NCBI GenBank assembly: GCA_016188915.1
Contig: JACPGU010000001.1
Coordinates: 34,111 to 98,110 of the forward strand
Length of the DNA: 64,000 nucleotides
Source of the DNA: Candidatus Microgenomates bacterium
Lineage (GTDB): Bacteria; Patescibacteriota; JACPGU01
Reading direction: 5' to 3'
Positions 11,386 through 62,042 of the stretch are shown here, piece after piece (position 1 is the stretch's first letter; every line of letters starts with the position of its first letter). Position numbers and translations under genes: made by a program. The notes beneath the pieces are model-generated. The model was not told where the DNA came from and did not search any database. It was given only the letters and a program-made list of their open reading frames with translations.

Positions 11386-12780
<1,395 letters not shown>

Positions 12781-15559: not shown

Positions 15560-15607
15560 GAGCTACTAAATTCTAAATCCTAAACACTAAATTCTAACCC
15601 CTAAACG

Positions 15608-15988: not shown

Positions 15989-16031
15989 GATAATCTCCTT
16001 CCTACAAATAATTTTGTAATTTTTAATTTTG

Positions 16032-16096: not shown

Positions 16097-16173
16097 TAAA
16101 TAAATCTTAATTTTTAAAAATTGAAAATTTAAACATTATTTAAAAATTCAAAAATTAAAAATTGAAAAATTTC

Positions 16174-21126: not shown

Positions 21127-21276
21127 AATGTTGTATAATTTTTAATTCTTAATTTTTTAATTTTTAAATAATGTCCTAAATCTTAATTTTTAAACTCAAA
21201 CGCTTTTGTATTCGTTTAGAAATTAGAAAATTGAGATTTATTTAAAAATTAAAAATTACAAAATTTAAAAATTTGA

Positions 21277-23013: not shown

Positions 23014-23018
23014 ATTAT

Positions 23019-23080
23019 ACTTCACCAAGGTGGCACTTTAGGAAGATCTACTTCACCAAGGTGGCACTTTAGGAAGATCT
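23019..23080. repeat. Perfect tandem duplication of the 31-bp unit ACTTCACCAAGGTGGCACTTTAGGAAGATCT.
   Basis: Two identical adjacent copies between the OmdA stop codon and the convergent terminator. Confidence 0.8.
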
Positions 23081-23091
23081 AATGGAGCAAA

Positions 23092-28834: not shown

Positions 28835-29377
28835 CTATTTCACTAGTGCCGTTAGATAATCCAATTCTTTTTCGTCGGCTAATTTCTTTTTGGCAAAAAT
28901 CTCAACAGTTTTGGCGTGGAAAGCATTGTGGCGCTCTTCCTCGCCACGAATAGCGGAAATAATTTTTTCTTCTGACGCGCTGACTTTGGCATCTATTTTC
29001 TTATCAATGACAGAAATAATCTTTTCTTCTGACGCGCTGACTTTGGCATCTATTTTCTTATCAATGACAGAAATAATTTTCTCTTCCGATGCGCTGATTT
29101 TCTTATCAATGACAGAAATAATTTTCTCTTCCGATGCGCTGACTTTGGCATCTATTTTCCTGTCAATCATGGAAATGATTTCCCCCTCGGCTTTTCCCAC
29201 TCTCCTATCGGTGTAATCTTTGAGCTCGGTTTTTAAGCCTTGGGTTTTTTCATCAACAATTCTCTCGACCATATTTTCTACCGCAGGTAATAAAACATCC
29301 TCAGCAAATTCACCGAGCTTTTCGGTCAAAGTCTCACTCAGTTCTTTCTTGGTGACATATTGGTTTTCTTCTGGCAC
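28835..29377 (-). CDS. Tandem-repeat coiled-coil protein: four near-identical 20-aa units (KIDAKVSASEEKIISVIDK-like; 60-nt DNA period).
   Basis: Near-perfect 60-bp nucleotide repeats at ~28960-29200. Confidence 0.5.
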   Translation of the reverse strand: MPEENQYVTKKELSETLTEKLGEFAEDVLLPAVENMVERIVDEKTQGLKTELKDYTDRRVGKAEGEIISMIDRKIDAKVSASEEKIISVIDKKISASEEKIISVIDKKIDAKVSASEEKIISVIDKKIDAKVSASEEKIISAIRGEEERHNAFHAKTVEIFAKKKLADEKELDYLTALVK

Positions 29378-33127: not shown

Positions 33128-33208
33128 AGTAACAGGTGTTAGGTTATAGTTTTTAGGTTTTAGGTGGGGGTTTCTGGTACATTAAGCCAAAAAATCTAAC
33201 ATCTAAAT

Positions 33209-33248: not shown

Positions 33249-34750
33249 ATGATTTTCTTGGCCACCACTAAACCCTCCTTCTTTTTCTGGAAAGTTCCTT
33301 CTAATTGCTGATTATAAACTTCCTCCAGCACTTTTCCAACTACTTTATTACCACTAGTTATCCCCATGAGCTTCATAATGTCGTGACCGGTAATGATTGG
33401 TTTCGGCAAGGGCTTCTTGTTCTCTTCCTCTTCCAGCCAAGACTTGGTTCTGTTGTAAACCGTTAAGTCTGGCGGGAGGATTTGCCCTCTTTTGTTAGTT
33501 CGCAGAGACGAATTGGCGTCCACCCAGAAAAGTTCCAGCAAGTCCGGGAAATAGGGGTGTTTCAAGTACATTATTTTGCGAGCCTCCCGCATTTTGGCTA
33601 GATTGCCAAAAAGCATATGATATTGGACGAGCCATTGGGCTTTGTCAATCTCTTCCCGAGAATATTTTAGTCGGCGCATGATTACTCCCGTCATCTTCGC
33701 GCCGAGAACGTCGTGCCCCGTGAAACGAACGCGGTCAGTGCCGTCTTTTTCTGGGGTTTGAATAGTGTAGGCTTTGGCTAGGTCGTGAAAAAGCACGCCC
33801 AAAGCATAGATGGGGTCGTCGTGCTTTCTCATATTTTTCAGGCAAAGCAACATATGATTCCAGACCGTGCCTTCGGCGTGATGAGAGGGCGGTTGATCGC
33901 AGGTGTGCGACTTGTCTATTTCCGGGATGATGAAATGGAGCAGACCAAGGTCGTCGAGCAATTTTAGCCCATGGCTGGGATTGGGCGAGGTCAAGATCTT
34001 GTTCAGCTCGTCGCGAAGGCGTTCGCCGGAAATTTTCGTAATATCGGCAGAGTGTTTTCTGATCGCGTCAAAGGACTTTTCTTCAATGACGAAATCCAGT
34101 TGCGCGGCAAATCTTGTTGCCCTCATCATTCGCAGAGCGTCTTCTTTGATCCTCTCCTCTGGTTCTCCGATGAATCTGATTGTTTTGGTCTTGATATCGG
34201 CAAAGCCATCAACATAATCAATGATTTCTAAATTTTTAATTTTTAATTTTCCCCACGCCTTTAGCGGGGTCCCGCCTACTATTTTATTCTCAAAAAGATG
34301 TGGCGGGATAATTTTTAAAGAATTTTTGAATTTTGTAATTTTTAATTTTGGATTTTGGATTTTTGCCACCAGTCCATTGATAGTAAAATCACGACGCAAG
34401 ACATCTTCCTCTATCGAAACATTGAATTTTACTTTTTGCGGGTGGCGCTGATCGGCTGTCCCATAATCACTCCTGAAAGTGGCGATTTCAATCAGTTGGT
34501 TGGTTTTTTTCGTCAAAGGCACGATGGCCGCCACCACCCCAAAGCTCTCCCCTATTTCAATATGCTTGACCTTGTTTTTATCCAAAGCTTTGATCGTCTC
34601 TTCCGGTGTGGCGGAGGTAGCGATATCAATATCGTGAATTTTTCGTCCCATAATCTTGTCGCGCACATACCCACCGGCAAACAAGGCAGTGTGACCTGCC
34701 TTTTCTAAAATTTCAATAATTTTTCCAGCGTTTTTTTCTTGGAGAGTCAT
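33233..34750 (-). CDS. cca: CCA-adding tRNA nucleotidyltransferase with an HD domain. Carries an in-frame ~45-aa insert encoded by the repeat element.
   Basis: GGYVRDKIMGRKIHDIDIAT, RRDFTINGL motifs. HD region HHAEG...HDLAK. The insert ...[26 protein letters not shown] lies after the RDFTIN motif. Confidence 0.85.
   Translation of the reverse strand: MTLQEKNAGKIIEILEKAGHTALFAGGYVRDKIMGRKIHDIDIATSATPEETIKALDKNKVKHIEIGESFGVVAAIVPLTKKTNQLIEIATFRSDYGTADQRHPQKVKFNVSIEEDVLRRDFTINGLVAKIQNPKLKITKFKNSLKIIPPHLFENKIVGGTPLKAWGKLKIKNLEIIDYVDGFADIKTKTIRFIGEPEERIKEDALRMMRATRFAAQLDFVIEEKSFDAIRKHSADITKISGERLRDELNKILTSPNPSHGLKLLDDLGLLHFIIPEIDKSHTCDQPPSHHAEGTVWNHMLLCLKNMRKHDDPIYALGVLFHDLAKAYTIQTPEKDGTDRVRFTGHDVLGAKMTGVIMRRLKYSREEIDKAQWLVQYHMLFGNLAKMREARKIMYLKHPYFPDLLELFWVDANSSLRTNKRGQILPPDLTVYNRTKSWLEEEENKKPLPKPIITGHDIMKLMGITSGNKVVGKVLEEVYNQQLEGTFQKKKEGLVVAKKIIKKLT
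34252..34316 (-). repeat. Copy 2 of the ~65-nt conserved core element, in frame within cca and flanked by AAAATT arrays.
   Basis: Differs from 16032..16096 at about one position over 65 nt. Confidence 0.8.
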
Positions 34751-34892
34751 GTGGGATAGTGGATAGTGGATAGTGGATAGTGAATAGACTTACTTTGACA
34801 GAATGATGATATTATACCATTTTTCTCGGGCAAAACAAAAAACCCGCTGGTGAGGCGGGCGAACGCGGAATGAGAACCCGTAAAGGGTGGGT

Positions 34893-38258: not shown

Positions 38259-39716
38259 TTATTTCTTTATCTTTTTATTTTTCCTATAATCTTCTTCTTC
38301 GGCCTTTCTTTCTTCTACCATATTGAAAACTCGTTCTGTTAATTCCTTTAGTTCTACGGTTTCTTGAATGCCATCACGCATATCACGAACCAGAGCTACA
38401 TTTGTCACGGCTTCTCTCTGTCCGATGATAACAGAAAAAAGAGCGTTTACTTTGTCGGCTGCTTTCATTTGCGCCTTGATTGTATCTTTGCCTACAGCCA
38501 TACCGACGGAAATACCTATCTTCCGCAGATTTTTTACTATTTGCAAAGCTATTTTTTTTGATTCTTCTCCCAGGTGAATAACATAGACATTGATTTTGGA
38601 TTTGGGCTTGGGAACTCTGATATTTTCTGTTTTGAGGTGTTCCACAATCCTGTCTATCCCCAGACCAAAACCGATAGCTGGAGTCATCTCGCCGCCCAAT
38701 TCTTCCACGAGACAGTCATAGCGTCCTCCCCCGCCCAAAGCGTTTTGTCTTTTGGTGTCATTCTTGGTGATTATTTCAAAAACTGTGCGATTATAATAAT
38801 CAAATCCACGGACGAGATTGGGAGCCAAATTATATGGCACACCCATCTCGTCTAGATATTCTAAGACAGACATAAAGTGTCCTTTGCAGTCTTCGCAAAT
38901 ATTTTCTATCATCAAAGGTGCGACTGCGATTAGTGCTTGGCATTTTTCATTTTTACAATCCAGAATACGCAAAGGATTTTTTTTCAATCTTTTTTTGCAA
39001 TCATCACAAAGTTTGCTCTCTTTTTTCTTAAAAAAATCTGTCAATATTTTTTTTATTCTTGGCCGACAGACAGAACAACCCATAGAATTAATGTTTATCT
39101 CGGCGCTGGTTATTCTCATATCTGTTAGCATTTGCCACGACACGCCGATAGTGTTGGCATCAATGGTAGGATCTGATTCTCCGAATATTTCTACCGAACA
39201 TTGCGTAAATTCGCGGAAACGTCCAGATTGAGGATTCTCGTGGCGAAAACAACGACCGATAGTGTAGAGAGAAACTGGCTTGGGCCAAACCTGCATGCCA
39301 TTTTCAATATAGGCTCGTACTATGCCAGCGGTTAATTCTGGTCGTAGAGCCAATTGAGACTGCTCTTCTTTGTCTTTTTTTCCACTTGTTCCCTTGTTTT
39401 TGCTACCATCAAAAACATACATTTCCTTGCTGACGACATCGGTTTCTTCGCCAACGCTACGCAGGAAAAGATCGGATTTTTCCAGCATAGGGACCTCTAT
39501 TTTTTCCAGCCCCGCTCCCTGGGCTACTGATTCAATAACGCTTATCGCGAAATCCCAGTAATGACTGTCTTCTGGTAAGATATCGCGAAATCCCTTGAGG
39601 CGGTTTATTGGTTGCATTTTAGGCATAAAAATATAACGGCAAATAGTAAATTTGGAGGCAATAAAAACAAACCTCTTCTTACTATTATACCGCACTCTGT
39701 CAAGAGCGAGTGGCAT
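38259..39716 (-). CDS. hisS: Histidyl-tRNA synthetase with a Cys-rich (zinc-ribbon-like) insertion; the start is probably an internal ATG (~39633).
   Basis: Class II motifs (RPELTAGIVRAY; FRHENPQSGRFREF; GGGRYD); anticodon-binding C-terminal domain. Confidence 0.8.
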   Translation of the reverse strand: MPLALDRVRYNSKKRFVFIASKFTICRYIFMPKMQPINRLKGFRDILPEDSHYWDFAISVIESVAQGAGLEKIEVPMLEKSDLFLRSVGEETDVVSKEMYVFDGSKNKGTSGKKDKEEQSQLALRPELTAGIVRAYIENGMQVWPKPVSLYTIGRCFRHENPQSGRFREFTQCSVEIFGESDPTIDANTIGVSWQMLTDMRITSAEININSMGCSVCRPRIKKILTDFFKKKESKLCDDCKKRLKKNPLRILDCKNEKCQALIAVAPLMIENICEDCKGHFMSVLEYLDEMGVPYNLAPNLVRGFDYYNRTVFEIITKNDTKRQNALGGGGRYDCLVEELGGEMTPAIGFGLGIDRIVEHLKTENIRVPKPKSKINVYVIHLGEESKKIALQIVKNLRKIGISVGMAVGKDTIKAQMKAADKVNALFSVIIGQREAVTNVALVRDMRDGIQETVELKELTERVFNMVEERKAEEEDYRKNKKIKK

Positions 39717-42213
39717 CCATTTTATTTCTGAGAATTTTTTTCTTTTCTAGGTTTAGACTGTCAGTTTTTGCATCTATTATGATATGATCACCAGAAATAA
39801 AGCGATCACCAATCAATTCTTCGGCTAATTTGTTTTCTATCTCTGCTTCTATCAAGCGACGGATCGGACGAGCGCCGTATTCCGGGTCAAATCCCCGATC
39901 AGCCAGCCATTTTTTAGCTTTGGCGGTGAATTCTAGGACAATACCTTTTTCCAGCAGGACTCTTTCCGCTAAAGTTTTCAGATTGATATTAACGATTTTG
40001 CCGATAGCAATACTATCTAATGGGCGAAAAACAACTATTTTGTCTACGCGATTGAGAAACTCCGGACTGAAATATTTTTTACTATCTGTCAAAACTTTGT
40101 TTTTCATTTGCTCGTAATCGCTCTCGGCCAAAGTTTTTTCTCGAGTTGTTTTGGCGGAAAATCCCATTGTAGCGGAACGGGACAAATCGGCCATTCCCAG
40201 GTTAGAAGTCATAATAATAATGGTGTTTTTGAAATCCACCTTGCGTCCTTTGGCATCAGTCAAATACCCATCTTCCAAAACTTGCAAAAGCATATTGAAA
40301 ACTTCGGGATGAGCTTTTTCTATTTCGTCAAACAGAACTACTGAATACGGTTTCTTACGGACTGCTTCGGTCAGTTTGCCCCCGTCGTCATAACCGACGT
40401 AACCTGCCGGTGCGCCGACAAGACGGCTGACATTATGTCGTTCCATGAATTCCGACATATCTATTTTGATTAGAGCATCCTCCCTCTCGTAAACTTCTTG
40501 AGCGAGGACTTTGGCTAATTCTGTTTTTCCCACTCCGGTTGGTCCTAGGAAAATAAAAGAACCGATTGGCCTGACGGGATTGCCCACGCCAGATCTACTT
40601 CTCCTGATAGCTCGGGCGATATTGATAATGGCTTCCTCTTGTCCGACGATTCGGCTCCCAAGAGTTTTTTCCAAAAAACTGAATTTATGGATTTCGGAAG
40701 AGATTAATTTGGTGATAGGGATACTGGTCCAATTACTGACTACGCGAGCGATGTCTTCCGTAGTAACTCGCGCTCTTTTTTCAGTTGGAATATCTTGTTT
40801 TTCCAAACGTAAGCGATCTAGCTCTTCTTTCAAAAATAATTCTTGGTCGCGTAACTGGGCGGCCATTTCAAAGGCTTGATCGGAAATAGCTTTATTTTTG
40901 CCCTTGATAGTTTCGACCAATCTGATCTCTAATTTTTTGACATCTTCGCTCTCCCCTACTTTTTCACGGATAACAACGGCTGAGCAGGCCTCATCCAGCA
41001 AATCAATAGCTTTGTCTGGCAGAAATCTATCGGCGATGTAGCGATGAGCAAGTTTGGCCGCAATCAAAAGAGCCTCTTCCTCTACCTTCACTTGGTGAAA
41101 ATCTTCATAGCGCGGAGCAATGCCTCGTAGAATAGCCACTGTTTCTTCCTGGCTTGGCTCTTCTACCAAAATGGGCTGAAAGCGTCTCTCAAAAGCGGCG
41201 TCTTTTTCAATATATTTACGATATTCATTGATGGTAGTGGCTCCGATACAGGATATTTTGCCACGAGAAAGAGCCGGTTTTAGCATATTACTAGCATCCA
41301 TTGACCCTTCTGCCGCGCCTGCTCCGACGATGGTATGCAATTCGTCAATAAAAAGAATAATGTTTTTGTCTTTTTCTACCTCGGCCAGCAACTTTTTTAT
41401 TCTTTCCTCAAATTCACCCCTAAATTTCGTGCCGGCGACCATGGCGCCCAGGTCGATAGAATAAATTTTTTTACCTTTTAGTTTGATCGGCACCTCCCCG
41501 AAAGCTATTTTGGCGGCCAATCCTTCTACAATGGCGGTTTTGCCTACGCCCGGATCGCCGATTAGAACAGGGTTGTTTTTAGTTTTGCGCGTTAAAATAT
41601 GAGTTAGGCGCGATATTTCTTTTTCACGACCGATGGTGGGATCGAGTTTTGTACCCTCGGCCTCTGCTGTCAAATCAATAGCATAAGCGTTCAACATAGA
41701 ATTAGTTTTATTTTTGACAGTACGGCCGGCAGTTACCTCTTGCTCTTTTGGTTTTTCAGGCATTTGCGCGGTGGACATAACAAAGATATGTTCAATTTGC
41801 TGAATAATGGTGGCTGGATTAACATCAATATTCTGGATTAAAGCGTAGGCTCTGAAATCAGAATTAGACAAAATACCAAAAAGCAGATGTTCACTGCCAA
41901 CATAAAAATGCTCATTTTGTCGCGCTACAACGATGGCTTTTTCTAGAGCTTGCCTCAAATCATGAGAAAGCCCGTTTTTCTGTAAATCCATTGAGCCATG
42001 CCACATCAAATTCATGGCAATTTCTATTCTTTCAAAATCTATTCCAAAACTAGATAATATTTCGTAGGCCACACCAATTTTTTCCGCTAAAATAGCGAGT
42101 AATACATGCTCGGTGCTGACAGCGCCAGAATTCATATCTTGAGCAATAGTCTGCGAAAGACTCAAAATTTTTTTAGCGTTGTAGGTGAAACGGTCAAAGC
42201 CAAATTCATTCAT
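39700..42213 (-). CDS. clpC: ATP-dependent Clp chaperone ClpC (two AAA+ modules, Clp_N repeats).
   Basis: Two Walker A sites ([13 protein letters not shown]; [12 protein letters not shown]); N-terminal Clp repeats; 837 aa. Confidence 0.85.
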
Positions 42214-42216
42214 GGC

Positions 42217-42248
42217 GAGTATTAAGTATTATGTATTAAGTATTGAGC
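42217..42248 (-). promoter_or_regulatory. TTAATAC heptad array immediately 5' of the clpC start codon.
   Basis: Minus strand reads CTCAATACTTAATACATAATACTTAATACTCGCC-ATG. Confidence 0.45.
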
Positions 42249-42450
42249 ATATGGCGATAAAAGTCCATACTCCAAATGTGCATATTGGCACTCTAAATAT
42301 CCGAGTGCTAATATTATTATATTGCTCCCGCAAAAAGCTGTCAAGATGGCGGAGGGTCACCGTAAAATTTCCCAAAAATATAGTCCTTTGGACTGATTCT
42401 CGCCTACTTAATTGATGGGTGGGGGTTTTTATTTTACTATAACAAAAAAA

Positions 42451-44219: not shown

Positions 44220-45437
44220 TTATTCGGTCGGAAGGTTGGTCTCGCTATTCTCCTCACTGGCGTCCTTTTTTTTCTTGGTTTTTTTCTCCTTCGGTTCTTT
44301 TTCGATTTTTTCTTTCTTTGCCTTTTTCACTTTTTTCTTTTCCCCCTCTTCCCCTTCGGTTGCTTCGCCCACCGGATTTTCTTTTTTCTCTACTTTTACC
44401 GGCTTTTGCGCGACATCCAGCACATCTATCTTCCAATCAGAGAGTTTGGCGGCCAGGCGAACATTTTGACCACTTTTACCGATAGCCAAAGACAGTTGGT
44501 CGGATTCCACATAGACAATAGCCTCTTTTCTTTTTTTGTCCAATTTCACTTCTGCGATTTTGGCCGGAGACAAAGCATTCGTGATATAGGCCTCTTCATT
44601 GCCGTCCCAAAGTACAATATCTATTTTCTCATTGTTTAGTTCTCCCAGGACCGCCTGAACACGCGTACCCCTTTGTCCTACGCATGAACCGACGGGGTCT
44701 ACTCCTTCTTGCAAAGCTCTCACAGCTATTTTGGTTCTGATGCCTGCCTCTCTAGCGATGCCCATTATCTCTACCGTGCCGGCCTCTATCTCTGGCACTT
44801 CAACCATAAAAAGATAACGAATCAGATCTGGATGGGCACGAGAGACGACAATCTGTGGACCGCGGTTATTTTTTTCTACCGAGGCAATGATCACTTTTAT
44901 CCTTTGGCCGGTGCGATAATGCTCGCCTACTATTTGATCGGCCGGAAACATAATGCCATTAGCCCGACCCAGATCAACGATGACATTACCCATATCTACT
45001 TGCTGAACTACGCCGTTGACCAATTTTCCTTCCTGTGATTTGAATTCATCAAAAACAATTTCGCGTTCTAGTTCTTTCAGCTTTTGGATAATTACTTGTT
45101 TAGCAGTTTGAGCGGCAATGCGACCAAAATCTTCATGAGATGGCAAATCGTAACTTATCTCTCCTTCTAGCTCTGCTTTTTTATCCATTTTTTTAGCTTC
45201 TTTTAGGGATATCTCGCAATTTTCGTCAGCTACTGCTTCCACTATTTTTTTTACCTGCCAAAATTTCATTAGCCCCTTTTCTGGGTCTATTTTGCAGCGG
45301 ATAATCTGGGTCGGCTTGCCATAATCTTTCCTGTACGCCGCTCCCAGCGCCGCTTCTACGGCCTCCAAGATAGCCTCTTTGCTAATCTTTTTCTCATCGG
45401 CCAGATGTTCGAGAGCCAAGATGAATTCTGCGTTCAT
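44220..45437 (-). CDS. nusA: Transcription termination factor NusA with a Lys/Glu-rich C-terminal tail.
   Basis: S1 and KH domain pattern; N-terminal MNAEFILALEHLADEKKISKEAI. Confidence 0.85.
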   Translation of the reverse strand: MNAEFILALEHLADEKKISKEAILEAVEAALGAAYRKDYGKPTQIIRCKIDPEKGLMKFWQVKKIVEAVADENCEISLKEAKKMDKKAELEGEISYDLPSHEDFGRIAAQTAKQVIIQKLKELEREIVFDEFKSQEGKLVNGVVQQVDMGNVIVDLGRANGIMFPADQIVGEHYRTGQRIKVIIASVEKNNRGPQIVVSRAHPDLIRYLFMVEVPEIEAGTVEIMGIAREAGIRTKIAVRALQEGVDPVGSCVGQRGTRVQAVLGELNNEKIDIVLWDGNEEAYITNALSPAKIAEVKLDKKRKEAIVYVESDQLSLAIGKSGQNVRLAAKLSDWKIDVLDVAQKPVKVEKKENPVGEATEGEEGEKKKVKKAKKEKIEKEPKEKKTKKKKDASEENSETNLPTE

Positions 45438-45450
45438 GGGTTTGGGTTAG

Positions 45451-45472
45451 TATTAAGTATTAAGTATTAAGA
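45451..45472 (-). promoter_or_regulatory. TTAATAC heptad array (x3) 5' of the nusA start codon.
   Basis: Minus strand reads CTTAATACTTAATACTTAATACTAACCCAAACCC-ATG. Confidence 0.45.
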
Positions 45473-45583
45473 AGGTTCGGCAATAAAAAAATAGAGTATA
45501 AATACTCTATTCTTACTTCGAATTATAACAAATCATTTTTTGTTTGTCAAATGAAAATACTCTCCGAGCTAACGAAGAGTATT

Positions 45584-47731: not shown

Positions 47732-49102
47732 TTAAACGCTTTTACCGACGATCTCTTTCAGTGTTTTTGTCTCAATGACTTTTGCCTTGCTTTTAATACT
47801 GACACTCTTCGCCATTCTTGGCAAGACGATAGTTTGAAATCCCAAACGAGTCGCCTCTTCAATTCTTTTCTCTAGATTTGGCACCGAACGCACTTCGCCA
47901 GACAATCCCAGTTCCCCAAAAATAGCGGTCTTACTGTCCAACGCTTTATTTTTCACTGCTGAAATTATTGCTAGTGCCACCGCCAGATCCACTGCGTTTT
48001 CCCGCACCTTGATCCCGCCAACGATATTCAAATAAACATCATGGGTGGACAAATCTACCCCCGCTCTTTTTTCGATAATCGCGATCAGGAGATTCAAGCG
48101 GTTCAAGTCATATCCCGAGGCTGTTCTTTTGGGATAACCGAAATAACTTTTGGCCGCCAAAGCTTGAATCTCTACGAGAAAAGGTCGATTGCCCTCAACT
48201 ATCGCCGATACCGCTACGCCAGAGGCGCCCTCCAGCCTTTCCTCCAAGAAAACTTTGGAAGGATTGGCCACCTCCACCATTCCCTCTTGCTCCATCTCAA
48301 ATATTCCCACTTCGGAAGTTTTGCCAAATCTATTTTTTATCCCTCGTAAGATGCGAAAAGATTGATAACGGTCGCCTTCCAAATACAAGACAACATCGAC
48401 CAAATGTTCCAAAGTTTTTGGTCCCGCGATTCCCCCGTCTTTGGTTACGTGGCCGATAATAAAAATGGGCGTATTGGTCGTTTTGGCGATTCTCATCAGA
48501 TTTTCTGTCGCATTTTTCACCTGCGCGATAGAACCGGAAGCGGAAGCGATATTGGCCGAATAGACCGTTTGAATAGAATCCACAATGACCAGATTGGGCT
48601 TTTCTGTCTCTATCGTGGCCACAATATTTCCCAAATCGTTTTCAGAAAGCAAGAAAATTTTCTCCTCTTTGATCTTCAATCTTTCCGCTCGCAGTTTTAT
48701 CTGTTGCGCCGATTCTTCCCCGGAAATATAGAGAATTTTTTCAATATCTTTATTTTTGGAAATGCCGACCAAAGATTGTAAGAGTAGGGTTGATTTGCCG
48801 ATCCCCGGATCGCCTCCGAGCAGGACGAGCGATCCTAGCACCACTCCCCCGCCGAGGACGCGATCGAATTCACCGATATTGGTTTTTATCCTCTCAAAAT
48901 TCTTGCTATCTACTTTGTCCAGAGAAATAAGTGGCGAAGCCCTACCTCCACTTTCCACTTTCCACTTTCCACTTTTCCCTGTCGCGACAACAGGAACTTC
49001 CTGCAAGGAATCCCAGTTTTGGCAAGCTCCACATTTCCCCTGCCATCGGACATACTCCGCCCCGCAGGAATTACAGACAAATTTTGAACTAGCCTTTGGC
49101 AT
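47732..49102 (-). CDS. radA: DNA repair protein RadA/Sms.
   Basis: N-terminal CxxC-x-CxxC zinc ribbon, Walker A GDPGIGKSTLLLQ, KNRFG motif, Lon-like C-terminal domain. Confidence 0.9.
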   Translation of the reverse strand: MPKASSKFVCNSCGAEYVRWQGKCGACQNWDSLQEVPVVATGKSGKWKVESGGRASPLISLDKVDSKNFERIKTNIGEFDRVLGGGVVLGSLVLLGGDPGIGKSTLLLQSLVGISKNKDIEKILYISGEESAQQIKLRAERLKIKEEKIFLLSENDLGNIVATIETEKPNLVIVDSIQTVYSANIASASGSIAQVKNATENLMRIAKTTNTPIFIIGHVTKDGGIAGPKTLEHLVDVVLYLEGDRYQSFRILRGIKNRFGKTSEVGIFEMEQEGMVEVANPSKVFLEERLEGASGVAVSAIVEGNRPFLVEIQALAAKSYFGYPKRTASGYDLNRLNLLIAIIEKRAGVDLSTHDVYLNIVGGIKVRENAVDLAVALAIISAVKNKALDSKTAIFGELGLSGEVRSVPNLEKRIEEATRLGFQTIVLPRMAKSVSIKSKAKVIETKTLKEIVGKSV

Positions 49103-49652: not shown

Positions 49653-49690
49653 CCCCAATTTGCCTGGGGAATGTTTCTTGTGTTATATTT

Positions 49691-49722
49691 ATACCTAATA
49701 CCTAATACTTAATACCAACTCC
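49691..49722 (+). promoter_or_regulatory. TTAATAC-type heptad array ending ...TTAATACCAACTCC immediately before ATG 49723.
   Basis: ATACCTAATACCTAATACTTAATACCAACTCC-ATGG; near-identical to the context at rpmF (58252..58284). Confidence 0.45.
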
Positions 49723-50379
49723 ATGGACTGTATTATTCTCGCCGGTGGCAAGGGCACTCGGATGGAAAGTCCCATTCCGAAAGTGCTGACTGAAGTCAAA
49801 GGCAAAGCCATTATCGCCCATCAAATAGATTATTTGAAAGACAAAGTGGACAAGATCGTCTTGGCTTTGGGTTTTCAGGCTGAAAAGGTCGCGCAATATA
49901 TTAAAGAAAAATATCCCGAGAGCTCTATTGAGCTTTCTTTTGAGGACGAACCTTTAGGCACCGGTGGCGCGACCAAAAAGGCGCTAGGACTCACTTCCAG
50001 CAAATTCGTTTTGGTTCTAAATAGTGACGATATCACCGATATTGACCCAAAAGATTTGGAAAAATACGCAGAAAGCGCGATTTGCGTCGCCCATCCCCGA
50101 CTGCCTTTCGGGTTAATTGAAGAAAAAGAAGGCTACGCCCGATTCGTCTTCAATCCTATTCTGGAAGACAGGTTGGTTCATATCGGCTGGCACATGCTCT
50201 CTCGCGAAGAATATCTGGAGGCTCTTCCTGACAAAGGCAGTATCGAATCTGATGTTTTTCCGAAAATGAAGTTACGCCTTCACCTTCACCAAGGATTTTG
50301 GGGAACCCTAAATAGCAAAAAGGATATTAGTAATTTTGAGCAAAGAACAGATTTGCCGGCATCATTAGAAATAAAATAA
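49723..50379 (+). CDS. Sugar-phosphate nucleotidyltransferase family protein.
   Basis: ILAGGKGTRM...P..PKVL N-terminal NTP-transferase signature. Confidence 0.7.
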   Translation: MDCIILAGGKGTRMESPIPKVLTEVKGKAIIAHQIDYLKDKVDKIVLALGFQAEKVAQYIKEKYPESSIELSFEDEPLGTGGATKKALGLTSSKFVLVLNSDDITDIDPKDLEKYAESAICVAHPRLPFGLIEEKEGYARFVFNPILEDRLVHIGWHMLSREEYLEALPDKGSIESDVFPKMKLRLHLHQGFWGTLNSKKDISNFEQRTDLPASLEIK

Positions 50380-50931: not shown

Positions 50932-52265
50932 TGATAAAGGCAAAAATAGAAAAACTAGTTTTTGGCGGACAAGGTCTTGCGCACATTGATGCCAAGACCT
51001 TTTTGTTATGGAACGCTTTGCCGAGCGAAGTGATGGAGGTGGAAAACTGGAAGAAAAAAGCGGGGATTTTTGATGGTATTGCGAAAAATATCATGGGGCC
51101 TTCTCCTCGCAGAATAGAGCCGAAGGAAAATCATTTCCTCTCCTGTTCTCCGTGGCAAATAATGGACTGGGAATACGAAAACGAACAAAAGATAGAGATT
51201 GCCAAAGAAACCTTTGAAAAAATTACAAAATTAAAAATTGTCCCGCCACATATATCTGAGAATAAAATGGTAGGCGGGATCCCGCTGGAAGCGTGGAAAA
51301 ATTTAAAAATTACGGCTAACAAGTCGTCTTACGGTTATCGCAACAAAATGGAATTTTCTTTTGCGGAAACGGATGGACAGATAACGCTGGCGCTTTTTGG
51401 TCGTGGCTCACACGAGAAAGTGCCTCTCACTGGTTGCGAATTGGCGCATCCGGCTATTAATAGAACTGCGCGAGAAATTTTGGCTTGGATCAATGAAGCG
51501 AAAATTCCTCTCCGCTCACTAAAAACTTTGATTGTTCGTAGTAATCAAAAAGGCGAGACGCTTGCGGGATTGTTTTTGAAAGATCGCCTACCGCAAATTG
51601 TCGCAAATTTAAGCGAATTATCACAAAAAATACAAGGCTTCTGGATCTATTATTCCACGCACCAGTCCCCTGCTTCCGTGCCAACCGAGTTGCTCTATCA
51701 CGAAGGCGCGGATTTTTTGGAAGAAGAAATTTTCGGGAAAAAACTGCGCTATGGACTCTTCAGTTTTTTTCAAGTCAATGTGCCGGTTTTTGCCAAAGCT
51801 CTCGCGGATATGGCGGATTTTGTTAAGGATACCGCGAATATTTTGGACTTATATAGTGGTGTCGGCGCGATAGGGATTTGCTTGGCTGATAAAAATCAGC
51901 GTTTAATTTCGGTTGATAACAATGAGGAGTCTATTAATTTCGCTAAACGAAATACTGGACTTAACGGAATGAAAAATTGCGAGGCCATTATCGCTTCCAC
52001 AGAAAAAGCGCTAGATCTGATAATGCCAGATCAAATATTGATTTTGGATCCTCCCCGTTCTGGCTTGCACAAAAAAGTGATTGAAAAAATCCTGGAAATT
52101 CAGCCCAAAAAAATAGTTTATTTATCATGTAATCTCTCAACCCAAGCCAGAGATGTGTCTATGCTTAATACTAATTACTTAATACTTGATACTAGTTTGT
52201 ACAATTTCTTCCCCCGCACTCCACATATTGAGGGACTAGTAATTTTGGAGAAAAAAGAGACCTAG
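50928..52265 (+). CDS. RumA/TrmA-family 23S rRNA (uracil-5-)-methyltransferase. Carries an in-frame insert encoded by the repeat element.
   Basis: TRAM-like N-terminus; SAM motifs LDLYSGVGAIG, DPPRSG. Insert ...KITKLKIVPPHISENKMVGGIPLEAWKNLKIT. Confidence 0.8.
   Translation: MMIKAKIEKLVFGGQGLAHIDAKTFLLWNALPSEVMEVENWKKKAGIFDGIAKNIMGPSPRRIEPKENHFLSCSPWQIMDWEYENEQKIEIAKETFEKITKLKIVPPHISENKMVGGIPLEAWKNLKITANKSSYGYRNKMEFSFAETDGQITLALFGRGSHEKVPLTGCELAHPAINRTAREILAWINEAKIPLRSLKTLIVRSNQKGETLAGLFLKDRLPQIVANLSELSQKIQGFWIYYSTHQSPASVPTELLYHEGADFLEEEIFGKKLRYGLFSFFQVNVPVFAKALADMADFVKDTANILDLYSGVGAIGICLADKNQRLISVDNNEESINFAKRNTGLNGMKNCEAIIASTEKALDLIMPDQILILDPPRSGLHKKVIEKILEIQPKKIVYLSCNLSTQARDVSMLNTNYLILDTSLYNFFPRTPHIEGLVILEKKET
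51235..51298 (+). repeat. Copy 3 of the ~65-nt conserved core element (reverse complement relative to copies 1 and 2 on + coordinates, so the same orientation relative to its host gene).
   Basis: aaaattgtcccgccacatatatctgagaataaaatggtaggcgggatcccgctggaagcgtgga is about 85% identical to the reverse complement of 16032..16096. Confidence 0.8.
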
Positions 52266-55706: not shown

Positions 55707-58214
55707 ATGAAGGCATATAGTCCTCAAAAAATAGAACCTAAATGGCAAAAGATTTGGGAAGAGAAAGGTATCTTCTCCGCTCTTGATTTTGACCAGAAGC
55801 CGAAGAAATACCTGCTTTTTGAATTCCCCTATCCTTCGGGCGACAGGCTCCATGTCGGTCACGCTCGTTCTTACACGGCTCTGGACGCGATGGCAAGAAA
55901 AGCTAGAATGGAAGGCTACAATGTGCTCCTGCCAATGGGTTGGGACGCCTTTGGCTTGCCGACCGAAAATTACGCGATCAAGAATAAAATCAGCCCGCAG
56001 AAAGTGACAGTCGAAAATATCGCCAATTCTAAAAAACAGGCGCAATCTTGGGGGTTATCGATTGACTGGAATCGAGAAATCAATACTACTGATCCGGATT
56101 ATTATAAATGGACGCAATGGATTTTCATTCAATTGTTCAAGCATGGCCTCGCCTATCGCGCTAAAACACAAGTGAACTGGTGCCCATCGTGCAAGACCAC
56201 TCTGGCCAACGAAGAAGTGCTCTCCGATGGCACGCATGAAAGATGCGGTTTTGCGACTGAAAAAAGAGAGCAAGAGCAATGGGTGATAAAAATCACGGCT
56301 TACGCCGACCGCTTGATTGATGACTTGGCGGAAGTAGATTTCTTGGAAAAGATCAAAACCCAGCAAATCAACTGGATCGGAAGAAGTTTAGGCATCAATA
56401 TTTCTTATAATATTGAGGGGCTAGATGGCCAAATAGCCGTCTATACTACTCGCCCCGACACAAATTTCGGAGCAACCTTTATCGTTGTCGCCCCCGAAAG
56501 TGACTTCGTCAAAGAACATTTAAAAGATTTTTCCAATCAAGACGAGATATCTAAATATATTGAAGCCTCGAAGAAAAAAACTGACATAGAGCGTATTGCC
56601 GAGGGCAGAAAAAAAACTGGTGTCAACACGGGGTTGGTCGCCATCAACCACTTAACTGATAAGAAAATGCCTATTTATGTCAGCGATTTCGTTCTGGCCA
56701 CAGTAGGAACGGGTTGCGTGATTGGTGTGCCAGGACACGACATCAGAGATTTTGAATTTGCCACCGAAAAAGGCCTGGAAATTATTCGTGTTGTTGTGGG
56801 TAGTGATGGTGATACTTCCCCTATTACGAAACCAGAACAAGTTCAAGAGGAAAAAGGCAAAATGATTAACAGCGGATTCCTGGACGGCATGGATATTCAT
56901 GAGGCAACTACAAAGATTATGGATTATATAGAGGAAAAAGGTTGGGGCAAAAAAATAAAAAGGTATCATCTTCGCGATTGGATTTTTTCAAGGCAACATT
57001 ATTGGGGAGAACCTATTCCATTGATTTTTTGCAATTTTTGCAAAAAATCAATGGAAGCTCAAAACTCAAAACTCAAAGCTCAAAATAAAGGCGAATCATT
57101 AAATCCCGGTTGGTTTGTCGTGCCGGAGGAAGAGCTACCGGTAAAACTTCCGGAACTGGAACATTATGAACCGTCCGGCACTGGTGAGTCGCCTCTGGCA
57201 AAGATTGCCAACTGGGTTAATGTGAAATGTCCAAGGTGTGGCGGAGAAGCCAAAAGAGAGACCGACACTATGCCCAATTGGGCCGGATCTAATTGGTATT
57301 ATCTAGGCTACCTGCTAAAATCACAAATAACAAATAGCAAATCACAAACATTTTTTAACGAAGAAACAACGAAAATCCTTAAATATTGGATGCCGGTGGA
57401 TTTGTATAATGGCGGAATGGAGCACACCACCCTGCACTTGCTCTATTCGCGTTTTATCTATAAATTCCTTTACGACATCGGTGTGGTGCCGACGAAAGAG
57501 CCCTACGCGCAGAGAAGATCGCACGGAATGATCTTGGGTCCTGATCGGCAAAAAATGAGCAAATCTCGAGGCAATGTCGTCAATCCGGACGAGATTGTGG
57601 CCAAACATGGAGCCGATGCCTTTCGCCTCTACGAAGCCTTCATCGGGCCTTTCGACCAGACTGTTTCTTGGAGCGATGAGTCGCTGGCCGGTTGCTCGCG
57701 TTTTCTTTCTCGCGTCTGGAGCATCAGTCAAGAAAAAGTTTCTGATTCCCCTACCCCACCAGAACTGCTAAAAAAGTTGCACAAAACCATCAAAAAAGTC
57801 GGCGCCGATATTGACGAGATGAAATTCAATACAGCCGTGGCCGCCATGATGGAATTCGTCAACGATTGGCAAAAAGAAAGTTTTTTGAACAAAAAAGACG
57901 CGCAAGATTTCTTGAAGATTCTCTCCCCTTTCGCGCCGCATATCACCGAGGAGCTTTGGGAAATACTGGAGGGCAAGGGTCTGATCGCCGAAAATTCTTG
58001 GCCAAAATATGACGAATCGCTCATCAAAGATACTGTCGTTACCATTGTTATCCAGGAGAATGGCAAACTACGAGGCGATATTGAGGCTCCCTTTGATTCT
58101 AGCGAAGAAGAGATATCGGCTATTTGCCAAAACTCGCCAAAATTTACGCATCTTGTCGAAAATACTAAAAAAGTTATTTACGTAAAAAACAAATTGATTA
58201 ATTTTGTGAAATAG
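55707..58214 (+). CDS. leuS: Leucyl-tRNA synthetase.
   Basis: HVGHARSY (HIGH), KMSKSRGN (KMSKS), CP1 editing domain; 835 aa. Confidence 0.9.
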   Translation: MKAYSPQKIEPKWQKIWEEKGIFSALDFDQKPKKYLLFEFPYPSGDRLHVGHARSYTALDAMARKARMEGYNVLLPMGWDAFGLPTENYAIKNKISPQKVTVENIANSKKQAQSWGLSIDWNREINTTDPDYYKWTQWIFIQLFKHGLAYRAKTQVNWCPSCKTTLANEEVLSDGTHERCGFATEKREQEQWVIKITAYADRLIDDLAEVDFLEKIKTQQINWIGRSLGINISYNIEGLDGQIAVYTTRPDTNFGATFIVVAPESDFVKEHLKDFSNQDEISKYIEASKKKTDIERIAEGRKKTGVNTGLVAINHLTDKKMPIYVSDFVLATVGTGCVIGVPGHDIRDFEFATEKGLEIIRVVVGSDGDTSPITKPEQVQEEKGKMINSGFLDGMDIHEATTKIMDYIEEKGWGKKIKRYHLRDWIFSRQHYWGEPIPLIFCNFCKKSMEAQNSKLKAQNKGESLNPGWFVVPEEELPVKLPELEHYEPSGTGESPLAKIANWVNVKCPRCGGEAKRETDTMPNWAGSNWYYLGYLLKSQITNSKSQTFFNEETTKILKYWMPVDLYNGGMEHTTLHLLYSRFIYKFLYDIGVVPTKEPYAQRRSHGMILGPDRQKMSKSRGNVVNPDEIVAKHGADAFRLYEAFIGPFDQTVSWSDESLAGCSRFLSRVWSISQEKVSDSPTPPELLKKLHKTIKKVGADIDEMKFNTAVAAMMEFVNDWQKESFLNKKDAQDFLKILSPFAPHITEELWEILEGKGLIAENSWPKYDESLIKDTVVTIVIQENGKLRGDIEAPFDSSEEEISAICQNSPKFTHLVENTKKVIYVKNKLINFVK

Positions 58215-58251
58215 TTTACAAAAATAGCTTTTTGTTCTATACTCAATACGT

Positions 58252-58284
58252 TATACTTAATACTTAATACTTAATACCAATTCA
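58252..58284 (+). promoter_or_regulatory. TTAATAC heptad array (x4) ending ...TTAATACCAATTCA immediately before the rpmF ATG.
   Basis: TTATACTTAATACTTAATACTTAATACCAATTCA-ATGG. Confidence 0.45.
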
Positions 58285-58473
58285 ATGGCCGAGCCGAAAA
58301 AACGTAAAAGCAAGGCGGCGACTAGACTGCGCCGTCGTAAAAACCAAGAAATTACTCTTTCTGGTGTTTCCCTGTGCCCGCAATGCAAATCTCCCTTTAC
58401 CCCTCATCGAGCATGCGGAGTTTGTGGCACATACAGGGGAAGACAAGTGGTCAAGGCTAAAACTAAGAAGTAA
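58285..58473 (+). CDS. rpmF: 50S ribosomal protein L32.
   Basis: MAEPKKRKSKAATRLRRR...CPQC...C..CG.Y zinc-ribbon L32. Confidence 0.85.
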   Translation: MAEPKKRKSKAATRLRRRKNQEITLSGVSLCPQCKSPFTPHRACGVCGTYRGRQVVKAKTKK

Positions 58474-58566
58474 TTTTTATAATTTTTAATTTTGTAATTT
58501 TTGAAATAATTCCTTAATTTCTAATGTTTAAAAATTAGGATTTAAGGCTTATTTAAAAATTAAAAA

Positions 58567-59433
58567 TTGGAAATTAAAAATTTCAAATCTATGCCGTACC
58601 TTTCTATTCGCCATCAATCAAGAATTATTGTTCTCCAGTCTCTCTACGAGTGGGATTTTGATGAAACTAAAAATCCTCTAGATATTTTGAATCGCAACGT
58701 TAACACTTCTGGCTACAAAGTAGATGATGAGTTTTGTCAAAAATTGCTGTCTGGCGTGACTGATAAAATGAAAGATATAGATGAATTGATTAAAAAAACC
58801 GCTCCTGAATGGCCGCTAGAACAAGTAGCTGTTATTGACCGATCGGTTTTGCGGATCGGTATTTTTGAATTACTTTTTGACAATGAGGTGCCTCCCAAGG
58901 CCGTTATTAATGAAGCAGTAGAATTGGGTAAATCATTTGGTGGAGAAAATAGCGGTAAATTTGTTAATGGAGTTTTGGGCACAATTTATAGAAATAGCGC
59001 CAAATATGCCGAGGAAGAAATGGTGACTTCATCCGGCGGAATAGTTTATCGCCTAGACGAAAACAAAACTATTTATTTTTTGGCTATTAAAAATATTTAT
59101 AATAAATGGACATTCCCAAAGGGAAAGGTAGAAGAAGGTGAAACCTGGCAAGAAGCCGCTATTAGAGAAGTAAAAGAAGAGACAGGGATAGAATCGGTGG
59201 ATATCCAGGGAGAAATCGGCGACATCAAATTCACTGATAAATCTGACACAGAACCGATTAAAAAAACTGTTCATTTTTTCTTAATGCGAACGGAACAGAG
59301 AGAAACTAAAAAAAATGATGTCAAAGAGCATATCAATGATGTCGCTTGGATGACGGAAGAAAAATTGCGTCAAAATTTAGATTATCCGAATTTGGTTGAG
59401 CTTTTAGACAAAGCGAAAGAAATGATGGAATAA
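58567..59433 (+). CDS. nusB: NusB domain fused to a C-terminal NUDIX hydrolase domain. The probable start is ATG 58591; the first 8 codons of the ORF-track start derive from an AAAATT array.
   Basis: NusB region (QSRIIVLQSLYEWDF...) of about 150 aa, then the NUDIX box GKVEEGETWQEAAIREVKEETGI within one 288-aa ORF. Confidence 0.65.
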   Translation: MEIKNFKSMPYLSIRHQSRIIVLQSLYEWDFDETKNPLDILNRNVNTSGYKVDDEFCQKLLSGVTDKMKDIDELIKKTAPEWPLEQVAVIDRSVLRIGIFELLFDNEVPPKAVINEAVELGKSFGGENSGKFVNGVLGTIYRNSAKYAEEEMVTSSGGIVYRLDENKTIYFLAIKNIYNKWTFPKGKVEEGETWQEAAIREVKEETGIESVDIQGEIGDIKFTDKSDTEPIKKTVHFFLMRTEQRETKKNDVKEHINDVAWMTEEKLRQNLDYPNLVELLDKAKEMME

Positions 59434-59604
59434 GCGATGGCATAATTTTTGAATTTTGTAATTTTTAATTTTTAAACAAATTTTTAATTTCTTAATTTTT
59501 AAACATTAAAAATTGAAACATTATTTACAAAATTACAAAATTAAAAATTTTAAAAATTAATAACATGCGCTGTTCAATGTAGCTGTTTTGACAAAACAGC
59601 AATA

Positions 59605-61314: not shown

Positions 61315-62042
61315 TATTTTTTCAAAATATCTATTTCTTTTTTAGTTAATTTCTTATATCGGCCTTTGCCTAAGTCTCCCAAAGATAAATGCCCGAATCT
61401 TATTCTTTTTAGAGACAGAACCTCCAAGCCTAAGACTTCACACATTCGTCTGATTTGCCTATTCCATCCTTGATGTAAAACTATTTTTAATTCTACCCTA
61501 TCCCCGCTCTCTTTAACAATCTCCACTTTGTCCGCCTTGGCTAGACCCTCTTTAAGCTCAACTCCCTTTATGAACTCGTTCCGAATGGAGCCGATATTCT
61601 TGAATCTTGAATCTTGAATCTTGAATCTGCCACTTACTAGATACTCTTTCTCCTTCTCATACCGCGGGTGCGTCAATTTATTGGCCAAATCGCCATCATT
61701 GGTAAAAAGGAGCGCTCCGGAAGTATCGTGATCGAGCCTACCGACCGAAAAAACTCTAGGGTTTTTTGGCACCAAATCTACCGCCTTTTTCCGTCCAAAA
61801 GGATCGAGAGAAGTAGTAATATAGCCGACCGGTTTATTGAGTAAATAATAAACCTTCTCCCCTTCCATCTGCACTTGTTTGCCACCGACAAAAATTCGGT
61901 CTTGTTCCGTATCCACTTGGAAGCCCATTTCTGTCACCACCACCCCATTCACGGACACTTGACTATTTTTCATTAGTTCTTCTGCTCCTCTGCGAGAAGA
62001 AACGCCACTTGACGCCAAGAATTTATTGAGACGCACCTGCAT
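61314..62042 (-). CDS. Pseudouridine synthase, RsuA/RluB family, with an in-frame (cttgaatc)n microsatellite insert.
   Basis: S4 domain N-terminus; VGRLDHDTSGALLFTNDG catalytic motif. Tandem 8-mer at 61597-61627 encodes RFKIQDSRFKN. Confidence 0.8.
   Translation of the reverse strand: MQVRLNKFLASSGVSSRRGAEELMKNSQVSVNGVVVTEMGFQVDTEQDRIFVGGKQVQMEGEKVYYLLNKPVGYITTSLDPFGRKKAVDLVPKNPRVFSVGRLDHDTSGALLFTNDGDLANKLTHPRYEKEKEYLVSGRFKIQDSRFKNIGSIRNEFIKGVELKEGLAKADKVEIVKESGDRVELKIVLHQGWNRQIRRMCEVLGLEVLSLKRIRFGHLSLGDLGKGRYKKLTKKEIDILKK

Follow-up and report, generated by a model that had tools for sequence, protein, structure and literature searches.

We analyzed a 64-kb stretch of DNA (64,000 nt, hereafter the window) from a Candidatus Microgenomates bacterium, a member of the Patescibacteria, in which four genes, clpC, nusA, a nucleotidyltransferase gene and rpmF, are preceded by arrays of a seven-nucleotide unit that adjoin their start codons (Table 1). 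Each array is contiguous and holds three to four copies of the unit, whose consensus is (T/C/A)TAATAC, and all four are oriented forward with respect to the gene; those of clpC and nusA lie on the minus strand, so that the plus strand reads GTATTAA there. In the sense direction the clpC array reads TCAATAC TTAATAC ATAATAC TTAATAC followed by TCGCC-ATG, and the nusA array has TTAATAC three times followed by TAACCCAAACCC-ATG, while CAACTCC and CAATTCA stand between the array and the ATG of the nucleotidyltransferase gene and of rpmF, respectively. A sequence-only reading of this DNA had pointed out the four arrays, and all of them are present where it had placed them; they do adjoin the ATG as it said, at distances of 4–11 nt rather than the 5–14 nt that it had given. 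The extended context TTAATACCAA(C/T)TC(C/A)ATGG, which it had described as common to rpmF and the nucleotidyltransferase gene, is likewise seen in the sequence. The start codons of the four genes are firm, because their N-termini align with those of orthologs and in-frame stops lie within the arrays just upstream; the Pfam profile alignments of ClpC, NusA, the nucleotidyltransferase and L32 begin at residues 1–21.

Searching the window with the pattern TTAATACNTAATAC, which spans two units, and allowing up to one mismatch, we obtained 11 matches where 0.11 were expected, a number that none of 100 shuffled sequences reached. Tandem Repeats Finder detected all four arrays, with 3.3–5.6 copies and 84–100% match. 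The TTAATAC heptamer alone is barely enriched, with 14 copies where 8 were expected, and arrays account for 11 of them. The arrays at the four sites are thus longer than chance allows and are heptanucleotide simple-sequence repeats, of the type called long simple sequence repeats (LSSR) or short tandemly repeated repetitive sequences (STRR). Their position is also far from random: when the 7.9 kb of intergenic DNA of the window was given a 25-nt array at a random position, in either orientation, the array ended 3–12 nt before a start codon and pointed at the gene in 3.4% of cases, giving P ~1.3e-6 for four of four. In either orientation, tandem units put a TAA into each of the three frames, and the unit is free of ATG, GTG and TTG.

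Promoters or promoter-like sequences were found 27–95 nt upstream of each of the four ATGs (Table 1), and on this ground the arrays are most simply read as transcribed 5′ leader sequence next to the AUG. At clpC, the array lies ~65–90 nt downstream of the promoter (72–98 nt downstream of its −10 hexamer) and fills the last 31 nt of the leader, abutting the ATG. At rpmF and the nucleotidyltransferase gene, the −10 hexamer itself is made by the degenerate 5′ end of the array (the first degenerate unit of rpmF forms TATACT), and the predicted leader consists nearly entirely of heptads. The clpC leader also contains a controlling inverted repeat of chaperone expression (CIRCE), the operator of HrcA, which starts 4 nt after the TATAAT hexamer and is separate from the heptad array; it was found by comparison with the consensus TTAGCACTC-N9-GAGTGCTAA in the position directly following a sigma-70 promoter. 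The relative L003 has this element upstream of clpC as well, and clpC in this lineage of the candidate phyla radiation (CPR) appears from these sequences to be under HrcA control. In the nusA leader, a 12-bp hairpin with a T-run stands only ~8 nt downstream of the perfect promoter, and it could be either a leader attenuator or the terminator of the upstream 110-aa gene overlapped by the promoter.

The same architecture occurs with other heptads. Altogether 10 of the 65 genes in the window have a leader heptad array ending 3–19 nt before the ATG, namely rplK, a corrinoid adenosyltransferase gene, a NYN-domain gene, cca, clpC, nusA, a methylpurine glycosylase gene, a 114-aa open reading frame (ORF), the nucleotidyltransferase gene and rpmF. 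The units in these leaders are AATTAAA, TTCATAA, CCTAAAA, CACTATC, TTAATAC, CCTAATT and CGGTAAG, that is, at least six heptads besides TTAATAC. We found no shared function among the array-led genes, which encode, among others, the protease-associated chaperone ClpC, a transcription factor, ribosomal proteins, a nucleotidyltransferase, the CCA-adding enzyme and a DNA glycosylase. Read on the other strand, the CACTATC array of cca is a tandem TGGATAG, each unit of which agrees with the DnaA-box consensus TGTGGATAA at 7 of 9 positions; this likeness is probably a coincidence, because the cumulative GC skew peaks near 10–12 kb and not at the array.

None of the four TTAATAC-led genes has a Shine–Dalgarno (SD) sequence when this is defined as at least 4 consecutive nt of AGGAGGTG at −20 to −4, in agreement with what the sequence-only reading had claimed. 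It had set them against ftsZ and rplL as genes with a classical AGGAGG; an SD is indeed present at both, in the form of GGAGG at ftsZ and AAGGAG at rplL (start at 15987, minus strand) rather than the exact AGGAGG. At clpC, all four syntenic relatives (L003, L005, L006 and L008) have AGGAGG 6–9 nt before the homologous ATG and the window genome has the array there; at nusA, an SD is seen in one of the four. The final 30 nt of the four TTAATAC-led leaders contain 0–3% G, and in predicted whole-leader folds the arrays of clpC and nusA are wholly unpaired, so that a single-stranded, G-poor segment of the kind expected of an unstructured SD-independent enhancer would lie directly 5′ of the AUG. The mean ensemble free energy of the segment from −35 to +25 was −4.7 kcal/mol for the array-led genes; it came to −7.4 where a gene had neither an array nor an SD, to −9.6 where the gene was SD-led and to −11.0 in intragenic windows. 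The weaker folding of array-led starts is supported at p = 0.03 against the other genes and at p = 0.005 against the SD-led ones, although only ten genes make up the array-led group and two of them fold well. With regard to a pairing of UUAAUAC with 16S rRNA, the sequence GUAAUAC is present in the universal 530-loop, in the same sense as the array and not as its complement, which we take to be a coincidence; an rRNA search of the 64-kb window found no rRNA gene. At gathering thresholds no Rfam family matched the window or the rpmF loci of the relatives, and two sub-threshold matches were at chance level, neither of them at an array.

To see how far the arrays extend among relatives, we compared the four syntenic loci named above and ~15 rpmF leaders, which came from a metagenome scan with the L32 N-terminus of the clade and from look-ups of L32 homologs. 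NusA of the closest relatives, one of which is annotated CPR3, is ~70–77% identical to that of the window; Logan contigs of two runs show no difference from the window. Heptads of the TA[ACT]TAC type stand directly before the rpmF ATG in the window and in L130, L146, L154 and L157, and partial arrays in L141, L153 and L164; among the leaders compared, those of L131/L135, L136, L147, L149, L158, L165 and L166 have no array. In the 205 kb of clade DNA, TA[ACT]TAC tandem arrays are found in leaders only: the four of the window, that of clpC in L008 and those of rpmF in L130, L146, L154 and L157. All array-bearing rpmF orthologs have a TATAAT 75–100 nt upstream of the ATG. Four relatives, L130, L146, L157 and L008, also carry the array in inverted form upstream of the start-proximal copy; the two copies are predicted to pair as a long hairpin, with the 3′ arm reaching almost to the AUG (fold z scores −6.0/−5.2 for L130, −2.6 for L146, −2.8 for L157 and −3.3 for L008). 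The arms remain complementary despite unit differences between the species (GTATTAT/ATAATAC, GTAGTAA/TTACTAC and GTATTAA/TTAATAC), which could reflect either selection for pairing or concerted evolution of a palindrome. The window genome has the start-proximal arm only. Recurrence at the same genes, beside the same codon, is unexpected for neutral microsatellites, and we regard it, across this divergence, as moderate sequence-based evidence for function. Some relatives have, as another kind of shared element, a ~90-nt conserved leader (…TTAnAGGAGAAATTTTA…GGAG…GAGTAAAATTnnGACGA-ATG) ahead of the unrelated genes nusA, hisS and rpmF (Table 1); the L149 copy has a fold z score of −4.45, could encode a short leader peptide and gave no Rfam match.

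Beyond the clade, a scan of GTDB genomes for three NTAATAC units returned at least 120 stretches, and 105 arrays could be assessed among the matches listed, to which all counts in this paragraph refer. They come from Bacteroidota, Ignavibacteria, Cyanobacteria (Moorena, Leptolyngbya, Oscillatoria and others), Chloroflexota, many Patescibacteria and others, many of these being low-SD phyla. An ATG opening at least 100 codons follows within 60 nt in 29 of the 105 in the forward orientation and in 8 of the 105 in the reverse orientation, compared with ~14% of random positions, and a gap of 4–12 nt to the ATG occurs 8 times forward and once in reverse. In genomes of Taylorbacteria, Woesebacteria, Saccharibacteria and an unclassified CPR member, the ATG is 6–9 nt past the array, some of these arrays having the inverted-pair form. 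The association between array and start codon outside the clade is thus real but partial. Other Patescibacteria (L033, L034, L091, L096 and L101) carry inverted pairs, (GTATTAN)n-spacer-(NTAATAC)n with spacers of 8–45 nt, upstream of a single gene or between possibly divergent genes. We considered whether the array and its inverted partner are a miniature inverted-repeat transposable element (MITE) with a conserved core and rejected this, as two such pairs from the same genome (L034, L091) have spacers that bear no relation to each other.

The nearest precedent is the TAACTGA heptamer direct repeat of marine Beggiatoaceae, for which a role in translation was proposed with S1, Csp or CsrA as candidates (MacGregor 2015, PMC4679880). 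The two have in common the copy number, the forward orientation and the end a few nt before the start, where an SD is rarely present; stops in three frames and no predicted RNA structure; functionally unrelated downstream genes including those of ribosomal proteins; and low SD use (~25% of genes there and ~22% here) (PMC4679880). The TAACTGA unit is also scattered over Cyanobacteria and Bacteroidetes, and its function, too, is only proposed (PMC4679880). In contrast, the unit here is TTAATAC and the phylum Patescibacteria, many different heptads form arrays although in BOGUAY related heptamers rarely do (PMC4679880), in-frame arrays occur within essential genes, and TAATAC-type arrays recur at orthologs and have hairpin-forming inverted partners in relatives, neither of which was reported for TAACTGA. 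The two seem to work alike and belong to different sequence families. A second precedent is provided by the TTTTGAA and GACYAAT heptamer repeats (STRR) of Nostoc PCC 7120, which are found no more than 100 nt from the start codon or −10 box in many unrelated genes, in some cases abut or overlap the ATG, and occur at genes with a distant or non-canonical SD, so that a role in transcription or translation was suspected (bioRxiv 10.1101/2022.06.06.494920). They are likewise contiguous heptamers near the starts of unrelated genes, but their units and phylum differ, the LexA/NtcA promoter effects described there have no counterpart here, and the arrays here are clearly downstream of promoters. In the literature searched, neither start-site selection nor heptanucleotide repeats of Patescibacteria were the subject of any paper that we found.

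G-poor, repeat-containing leaders such as the omega leader of tobacco mosaic virus (TMV), with its ACAAUUAC direct repeats, can replace the SD in E. coli, and S1-dependent AU-rich enhancers are also known. Like TMV omega, the four leaders have a G-poor, repeat-containing segment, predicted to be unstructured, before the AUG in the place of the SD. In the SD-poor Bacteroidetes, low mRNA structure near the start tunes initiation and is a main determinant of it (PMC6847099). A Kozak-like A at −3, a positive determinant in Flavobacterium (PMC6847099), was looked for here and is absent from all four genes, where −3 is G, C, T and T.

Taken together, we favor the reading that the arrays act as unstructured, SD-free translation-initiation leaders, and we give it an even chance. 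An SD-less A/U-rich translation leader was one of the possibilities raised by the sequence-only reading, and of these it fits the evidence best, since the arrays lie between promoter and ATG, are G-free and predicted to be unpaired, and at clpC occupy the position of the AGGAGG. The heptad arrays would arise by slippage-type expansion of 7-nt units and last wherever they are tolerated. The array itself, being G-free, free of start codons, provided with stops in three frames and predicted to be unstructured, would be the translation-initiation region and would replace the SD, the 30S subunit loading without SD pairing either directly or through a single-strand RNA binder such as S1 or a cold-shock-domain protein. 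In the relatives with an inverted upstream copy, pairing would hide the initiation region in a hairpin and so tune expression. In this scheme, the slippage origin, the effect on translation and the protein partner are what we infer.

Several observations weigh against this reading, besides the small number of array-led genes in the folding comparison. No SD was found at 51 of the 65 window genes, so its absence is not special to array-led genes, and a mutual exclusion of SD and array, which we considered, goes in the right direction (an SD in none of the 10 array-led genes versus 14 of the 55 others) but is not significant, since most genes are without an SD. The element is dispensable, because arrays are missing from about half of the rpmF orthologs and from nusA in all four relatives. 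Outside the clade, 76 of the 105 NTAATAC arrays assessed among the matches listed have no start codon close by. Heptads of other kinds form arrays within genes and in 3′ regions as well, and a function-free mutational origin would cover much of the pattern. The transcription start sites were deduced from consensus promoter matches, and the −10-like hexamers AATACT and CATAAT inside the arrays leave room for a promoter role.

The most serious alternative, which we consider possible though unlikely, is that the arrays are neutral microsatellites, by-products of a lineage-specific 7-nt slippage or mobile-repeat process with no role in expression; leaders would hold them as SD-less leaders tolerate them, and the TAA in every frame would exclude them from ORFs. 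Such a process is suggested by the abundance of this repeat length. With a uniform detector, the window gave 18 period-7 arrays against ~0.05 expected, while the other periods from 4 to 12 gave 0–5 (~0.05–0.2 each in simulation); the Tandem Repeats Finder output likewise holds many period-7 arrays of many units, and the loci of the four syntenic relatives show the same bias. In-frame heptad arrays lie within the genes for TGT, IleRS, LeuRS, RadA, the CCA-adding enzyme and a pseudouridine synthase, in variable loops, where they encode short K/N/S/Q/I-rich peptides; in coding units with TAA, a point change abolishes the in-frame stop, and in RadA and WecG the relatives hold different arrays in the same loops. 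A degenerate TTAATAC-like array is also found inside an ORF (Table 1); this array, like the general lack of SD and the many other heptad units, goes beyond what the sequence-only reading had listed. Arrays of A/T-only heptads (TTAAAAA/TAATTTT) are concentrated in the larger intergenic regions, with 60–67-nt similarity among them, and TTTAGAA-type arrays follow the rplL stop codon, so that not all heptad arrays of the window are close to a start codon. TAATTTT-type heptads also border both sides of a dispersed MITE-like element of ~80–90 nt with a GC-rich hairpin core (CCCGCC...GGCGGG). Two of its copies are 97% identical; one is inserted in frame in the gene for the CCA-adding enzyme, making a 42-aa insertion relative to the L006 ortholog, another lies between rplJ and rplL, and the third is within a TrmA-like gene or immediately ahead of it. 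This element carries TAATTTT heptads, not TTAATAC.

Table 1. Positions of genes, arrays, promoters and other features in the window (last three rows, positions in the relatives' sequences).
Feature	Position	Strand	Remarks
clpC (Clp_N, two AAA domains, UVR, ClpB_D2-small)	39700..42213	-	Pfam and ortholog N-termini
nusA	44220..45437	-	Pfam and ortholog N-termini
Nucleotidyltransferase gene (NTP_transf_3 / NTP_transferase)	49723..50379	+	Pfam and ortholog N-termini
rpmF (ribosomal protein L32)	58285..58473	+	Pfam
clpC array, ~3.9 copies	42218..42244	-	repeat and pattern search; ends 4 nt before ATG at 42213
nusA array, TTAATAC x3.3	45449..45471	-	gap 11 nt to ATG at 45437
Nucleotidyltransferase gene array, CTAATAC CTAATAC TTAATAC	49691..49715	+	gap 7 nt to ATG (49723)
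rpmF array, degenerate 5′ units and perfect TTAATAC x3 core at 58253-58277	58239..58277	+	gap 7 nt to ATG at 58285
clpC promoter, TTGACA-17-TATAAT (12/12)	42316..42344	-	promoter scan; leader ~95 nt
CIRCE (HrcA) operator at clpC, TTAGCACTC-N9-GAGTGCCAA	42285..42311	-	1 mismatch; 0.01 expected
nusA promoter, TTGACA-17-TATAAT (12/12, TG-extended)	45522..45550	-	promoter scan; leader ~78 nt
nusA-leader hairpin and T-run, terminator- or attenuator-like	45487..45514	-	fold z -2.5; between promoter and array
Nucleotidyltransferase gene promoter-like sequence, TTGCCT-18-TATATT (TG-extended, 9/12)	49660..49689	+	promoter scan; leader ~27 nt
rpmF promoter-like sequence, TTTACA-17-TATACT (10/12)	58215..58243	+	promoter scan; leader ~35 nt
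Leader array, sense AATTAAA/AATTAAG	21136..21167	-	before rplK
Leader array, sense TTCATAA	28754..28772	-	ends 3 nt before corrinoid adenosyltransferase ATG
Leader array, sense CCTAAAA-type	33134..33165	-	before NYN-domain gene
Leader array, sense CACTATC x4.9	34754..34787	-	ends 3 nt before cca ATG; same architecture, another heptad
Leader array, sense CCTAATT/TTTCTAA	47324..47355	-	before methylpurine-DNA glycosylase gene
Degenerate TTAATAC-like array	52164..52193	+	inside C-terminal part of TrmA-like methyltransferase ORF; encodes LNTNYLILDT
Coding heptad arrays, tgt	11692-12463		
Coding heptad arrays, ileS	24608-25751		
Coding heptad array, radA	48947-48975		
Coding heptad arrays, leuS	57058-57348		
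Coding heptad array, pseudouridine synthase	61598-61628		
Coding heptad arrays, further site	11116-11174		
Intergenic heptad clusters	58476-58588, 59443-59560, 21136-21273, 16100-16171, 15566-15610		
MITE-like copies	34237-34315, 16017-16095, 51231-51313		51231-51313 in reverse orientation
~90-nt conserved leader, nusA	L006 9905-10000 and L008 9905-10000		
~90-nt conserved leader, hisS	L008 16425-16522		
~90-nt conserved leader, rpmF	L149 ~11840-11938		

A neutral origin also agrees with the relatives' clpC upstream regions, which have unrelated heptads (TTTGAGA in L005 and TTGGATA in L006), and with the many orthologs that are without arrays. As summarized in PMC4679880, the survey of Mrazek et al. 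(2007) found that heptanucleotides are the commonest long simple repeats and dominate the periods of 5–11 nt, with a sporadic phylogeny, and ascribed them to polymerase slippage. Period 7 is dominant here, too, over the 0–5 arrays of other periods; on the other hand, the in-gene repeats of that survey were, according to the same summary, mostly multiples of three, whereas 7-nt arrays are in frame in conserved genes here, and CPR genomes lay outside that survey as far as it is described there. What a neutral process does not lead one to expect is that all four TTAATAC arrays point forward and lie no more than 11 nt from the ATG even in leaders of 78–95 nt (P ~1e-6), that the TA[ACT]TAC family is confined to leaders in the 205 kb of the clade, and that it turns up again at rpmF and clpC in lineages with only 67–77% identity in NusA and L32 and with intergenic flanks that have no evident similarity on inspection. 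The inverted arms, moreover, remain complementary though their units differ. Independent assemblies (the window and L001 and L002, L008 and L009, L003 and L004, L006 and L007) are 100% identical and show no copy-number difference; as they include no diverged strains, they speak neither for nor against hypervariability. In a phase-variable contingency locus, a repeat in a promoter spacer or an ORF switches expression or reading frame as its copy number changes. The arrays do not fit this description, as they lie between the −10 box and the ATG, the coding arrays are in frame, and the targets are housekeeping rather than surface genes.

It is improbable, although the sequence-only reading had raised it, that the arrays are tandem −10-like elements giving very short-leader or leaderless mRNAs. 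Overlapping hexamers do arise within them, AATACT at TTAATAC/T junctions and CATAAT at ACATAATAC, and the degenerate 5′ units form the TATACT of rpmF and the TATATT of the nucleotidyltransferase gene; the promoter scan lists TCGCCA-18-CATAAT within the clpC array, and TTGCCG-16-AATACT can be found by eye at nusA. In the CPR genome L091, and possibly in L034, the arrays face outward around a spacer of ~20 nt, leaving little room for separate promoters. With promoters 27–95 nt upstream, however, such elements are not needed, and these consensus promoters favor leadered over leaderless transcripts. At clpC and nusA a 12/12 promoter already exists 78–95 nt upstream, and an internal clpC promoter would bypass the CIRCE. 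The array-bearing rpmF orthologs have their strong TATAAT 75–100 nt upstream, so that the entire hairpin is downstream of the box. AATACT agrees with the −10 consensus at only 4 of 6 positions, the matching −35 hexamers are weak, and leader heptads of other kinds, CACTATC and CCTAAAA among them, do not resemble a −10 box.

The operator of CtsR, the regulator of clp genes in Firmicutes, has the consensus (A/G)GTCAAA-NAN-(A/G)GTCAAA. An operator in the DNA, bound by a transcription factor that reads the repeats, be it CtsR-like or of another kind, with a regulon of clpC, nusA, rpmF and the nucleotidyltransferase gene, as the sequence-only reading had suggested from the directly repeated heptads upstream of clpC, has little in its favor beyond that superficial resemblance, the sharing of one unit by four genes and the fact that the inverted pairs of the relatives can be read as palindromic operators, and it is very improbable: the CtsR operator has two units and overlaps the promoter, whereas here three to four contiguous units without similarity to GTCAAA adjoin the ATG, far downstream of the clpC and nusA promoters; clpC has the CIRCE/HrcA operator instead; with a 7-bp period, consecutive sites would not face the same side of the DNA helix; the genes are functionally incoherent, three of the four not being stress genes; the unit drifts among relatives (TTAATAC, ATAATAC, TTACTAC and TAACTAC), some of which have different heptads altogether, while its position to the ATG is kept; and a Pfam scan of 40 window ORFs revealed no CtsR-like domain.

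Other features of the window were noted along the way. A gene for a NusB-NUDIX fusion lies directly downstream of rpmF (58567-59433), an order that is kept in L130 and L131. A 31-nt perfect palindrome, GACCTATAACTCACG(A/G)CCGTGAGTTATAGGT, occurs twice in intergenic DNA (14668-14698 and 3076-3106, 11.6 kb apart) and could represent a terminator or a dispersed hairpin element. The window also holds longer tandem repeats, one with a 45/90-nt period (14891-15267) within a 228-aa ORF (14806-15492) and one with a 57-nt period (28956-29181) within an ORF at 28835-29377, and there is an exact 31-nt duplication at 23018-23081. Genes for a TrwB-like type IV secretion coupling protein and a type IV secretion system pilin are found at 5843-8814.

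How start codons are chosen in SD-poor bacteria is only partly understood, and here a conserved AGGAGG of clpC, present in all four relatives, has been swapped for a tandem 7-nt repeat of a type that recurs in rpmF and clpC leaders. The finding extends the phenomenon of heptamer repeats before start codons, described in giant sulfur bacteria and cyanobacteria, to a third and very different lineage with tiny genomes. The elements are short and easily made, and their natural hairpin and non-hairpin variants are suited to cell-free translation. If the arrays are neutral, they would attest to an unusually strong 7-nt repeat process that puts peptides into the essential enzymes of a reduced genome. 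A wider and rather unlikely possibility is that TA(A/C)TAC arrays, alone or as a hairpin, are a conserved class of cis-regulatory leader in the Patescibacteria and perhaps other SD-poor phyla, read by a single-strand RNA-binding factor dedicated to them, which would have a 7-nt footprint and might be a cold-shock-domain or S1-like protein. If this were true, these bacteria would have a post-transcriptional regulon, including rpmF and clpC, that substitutes for Shine–Dalgarno pairing.

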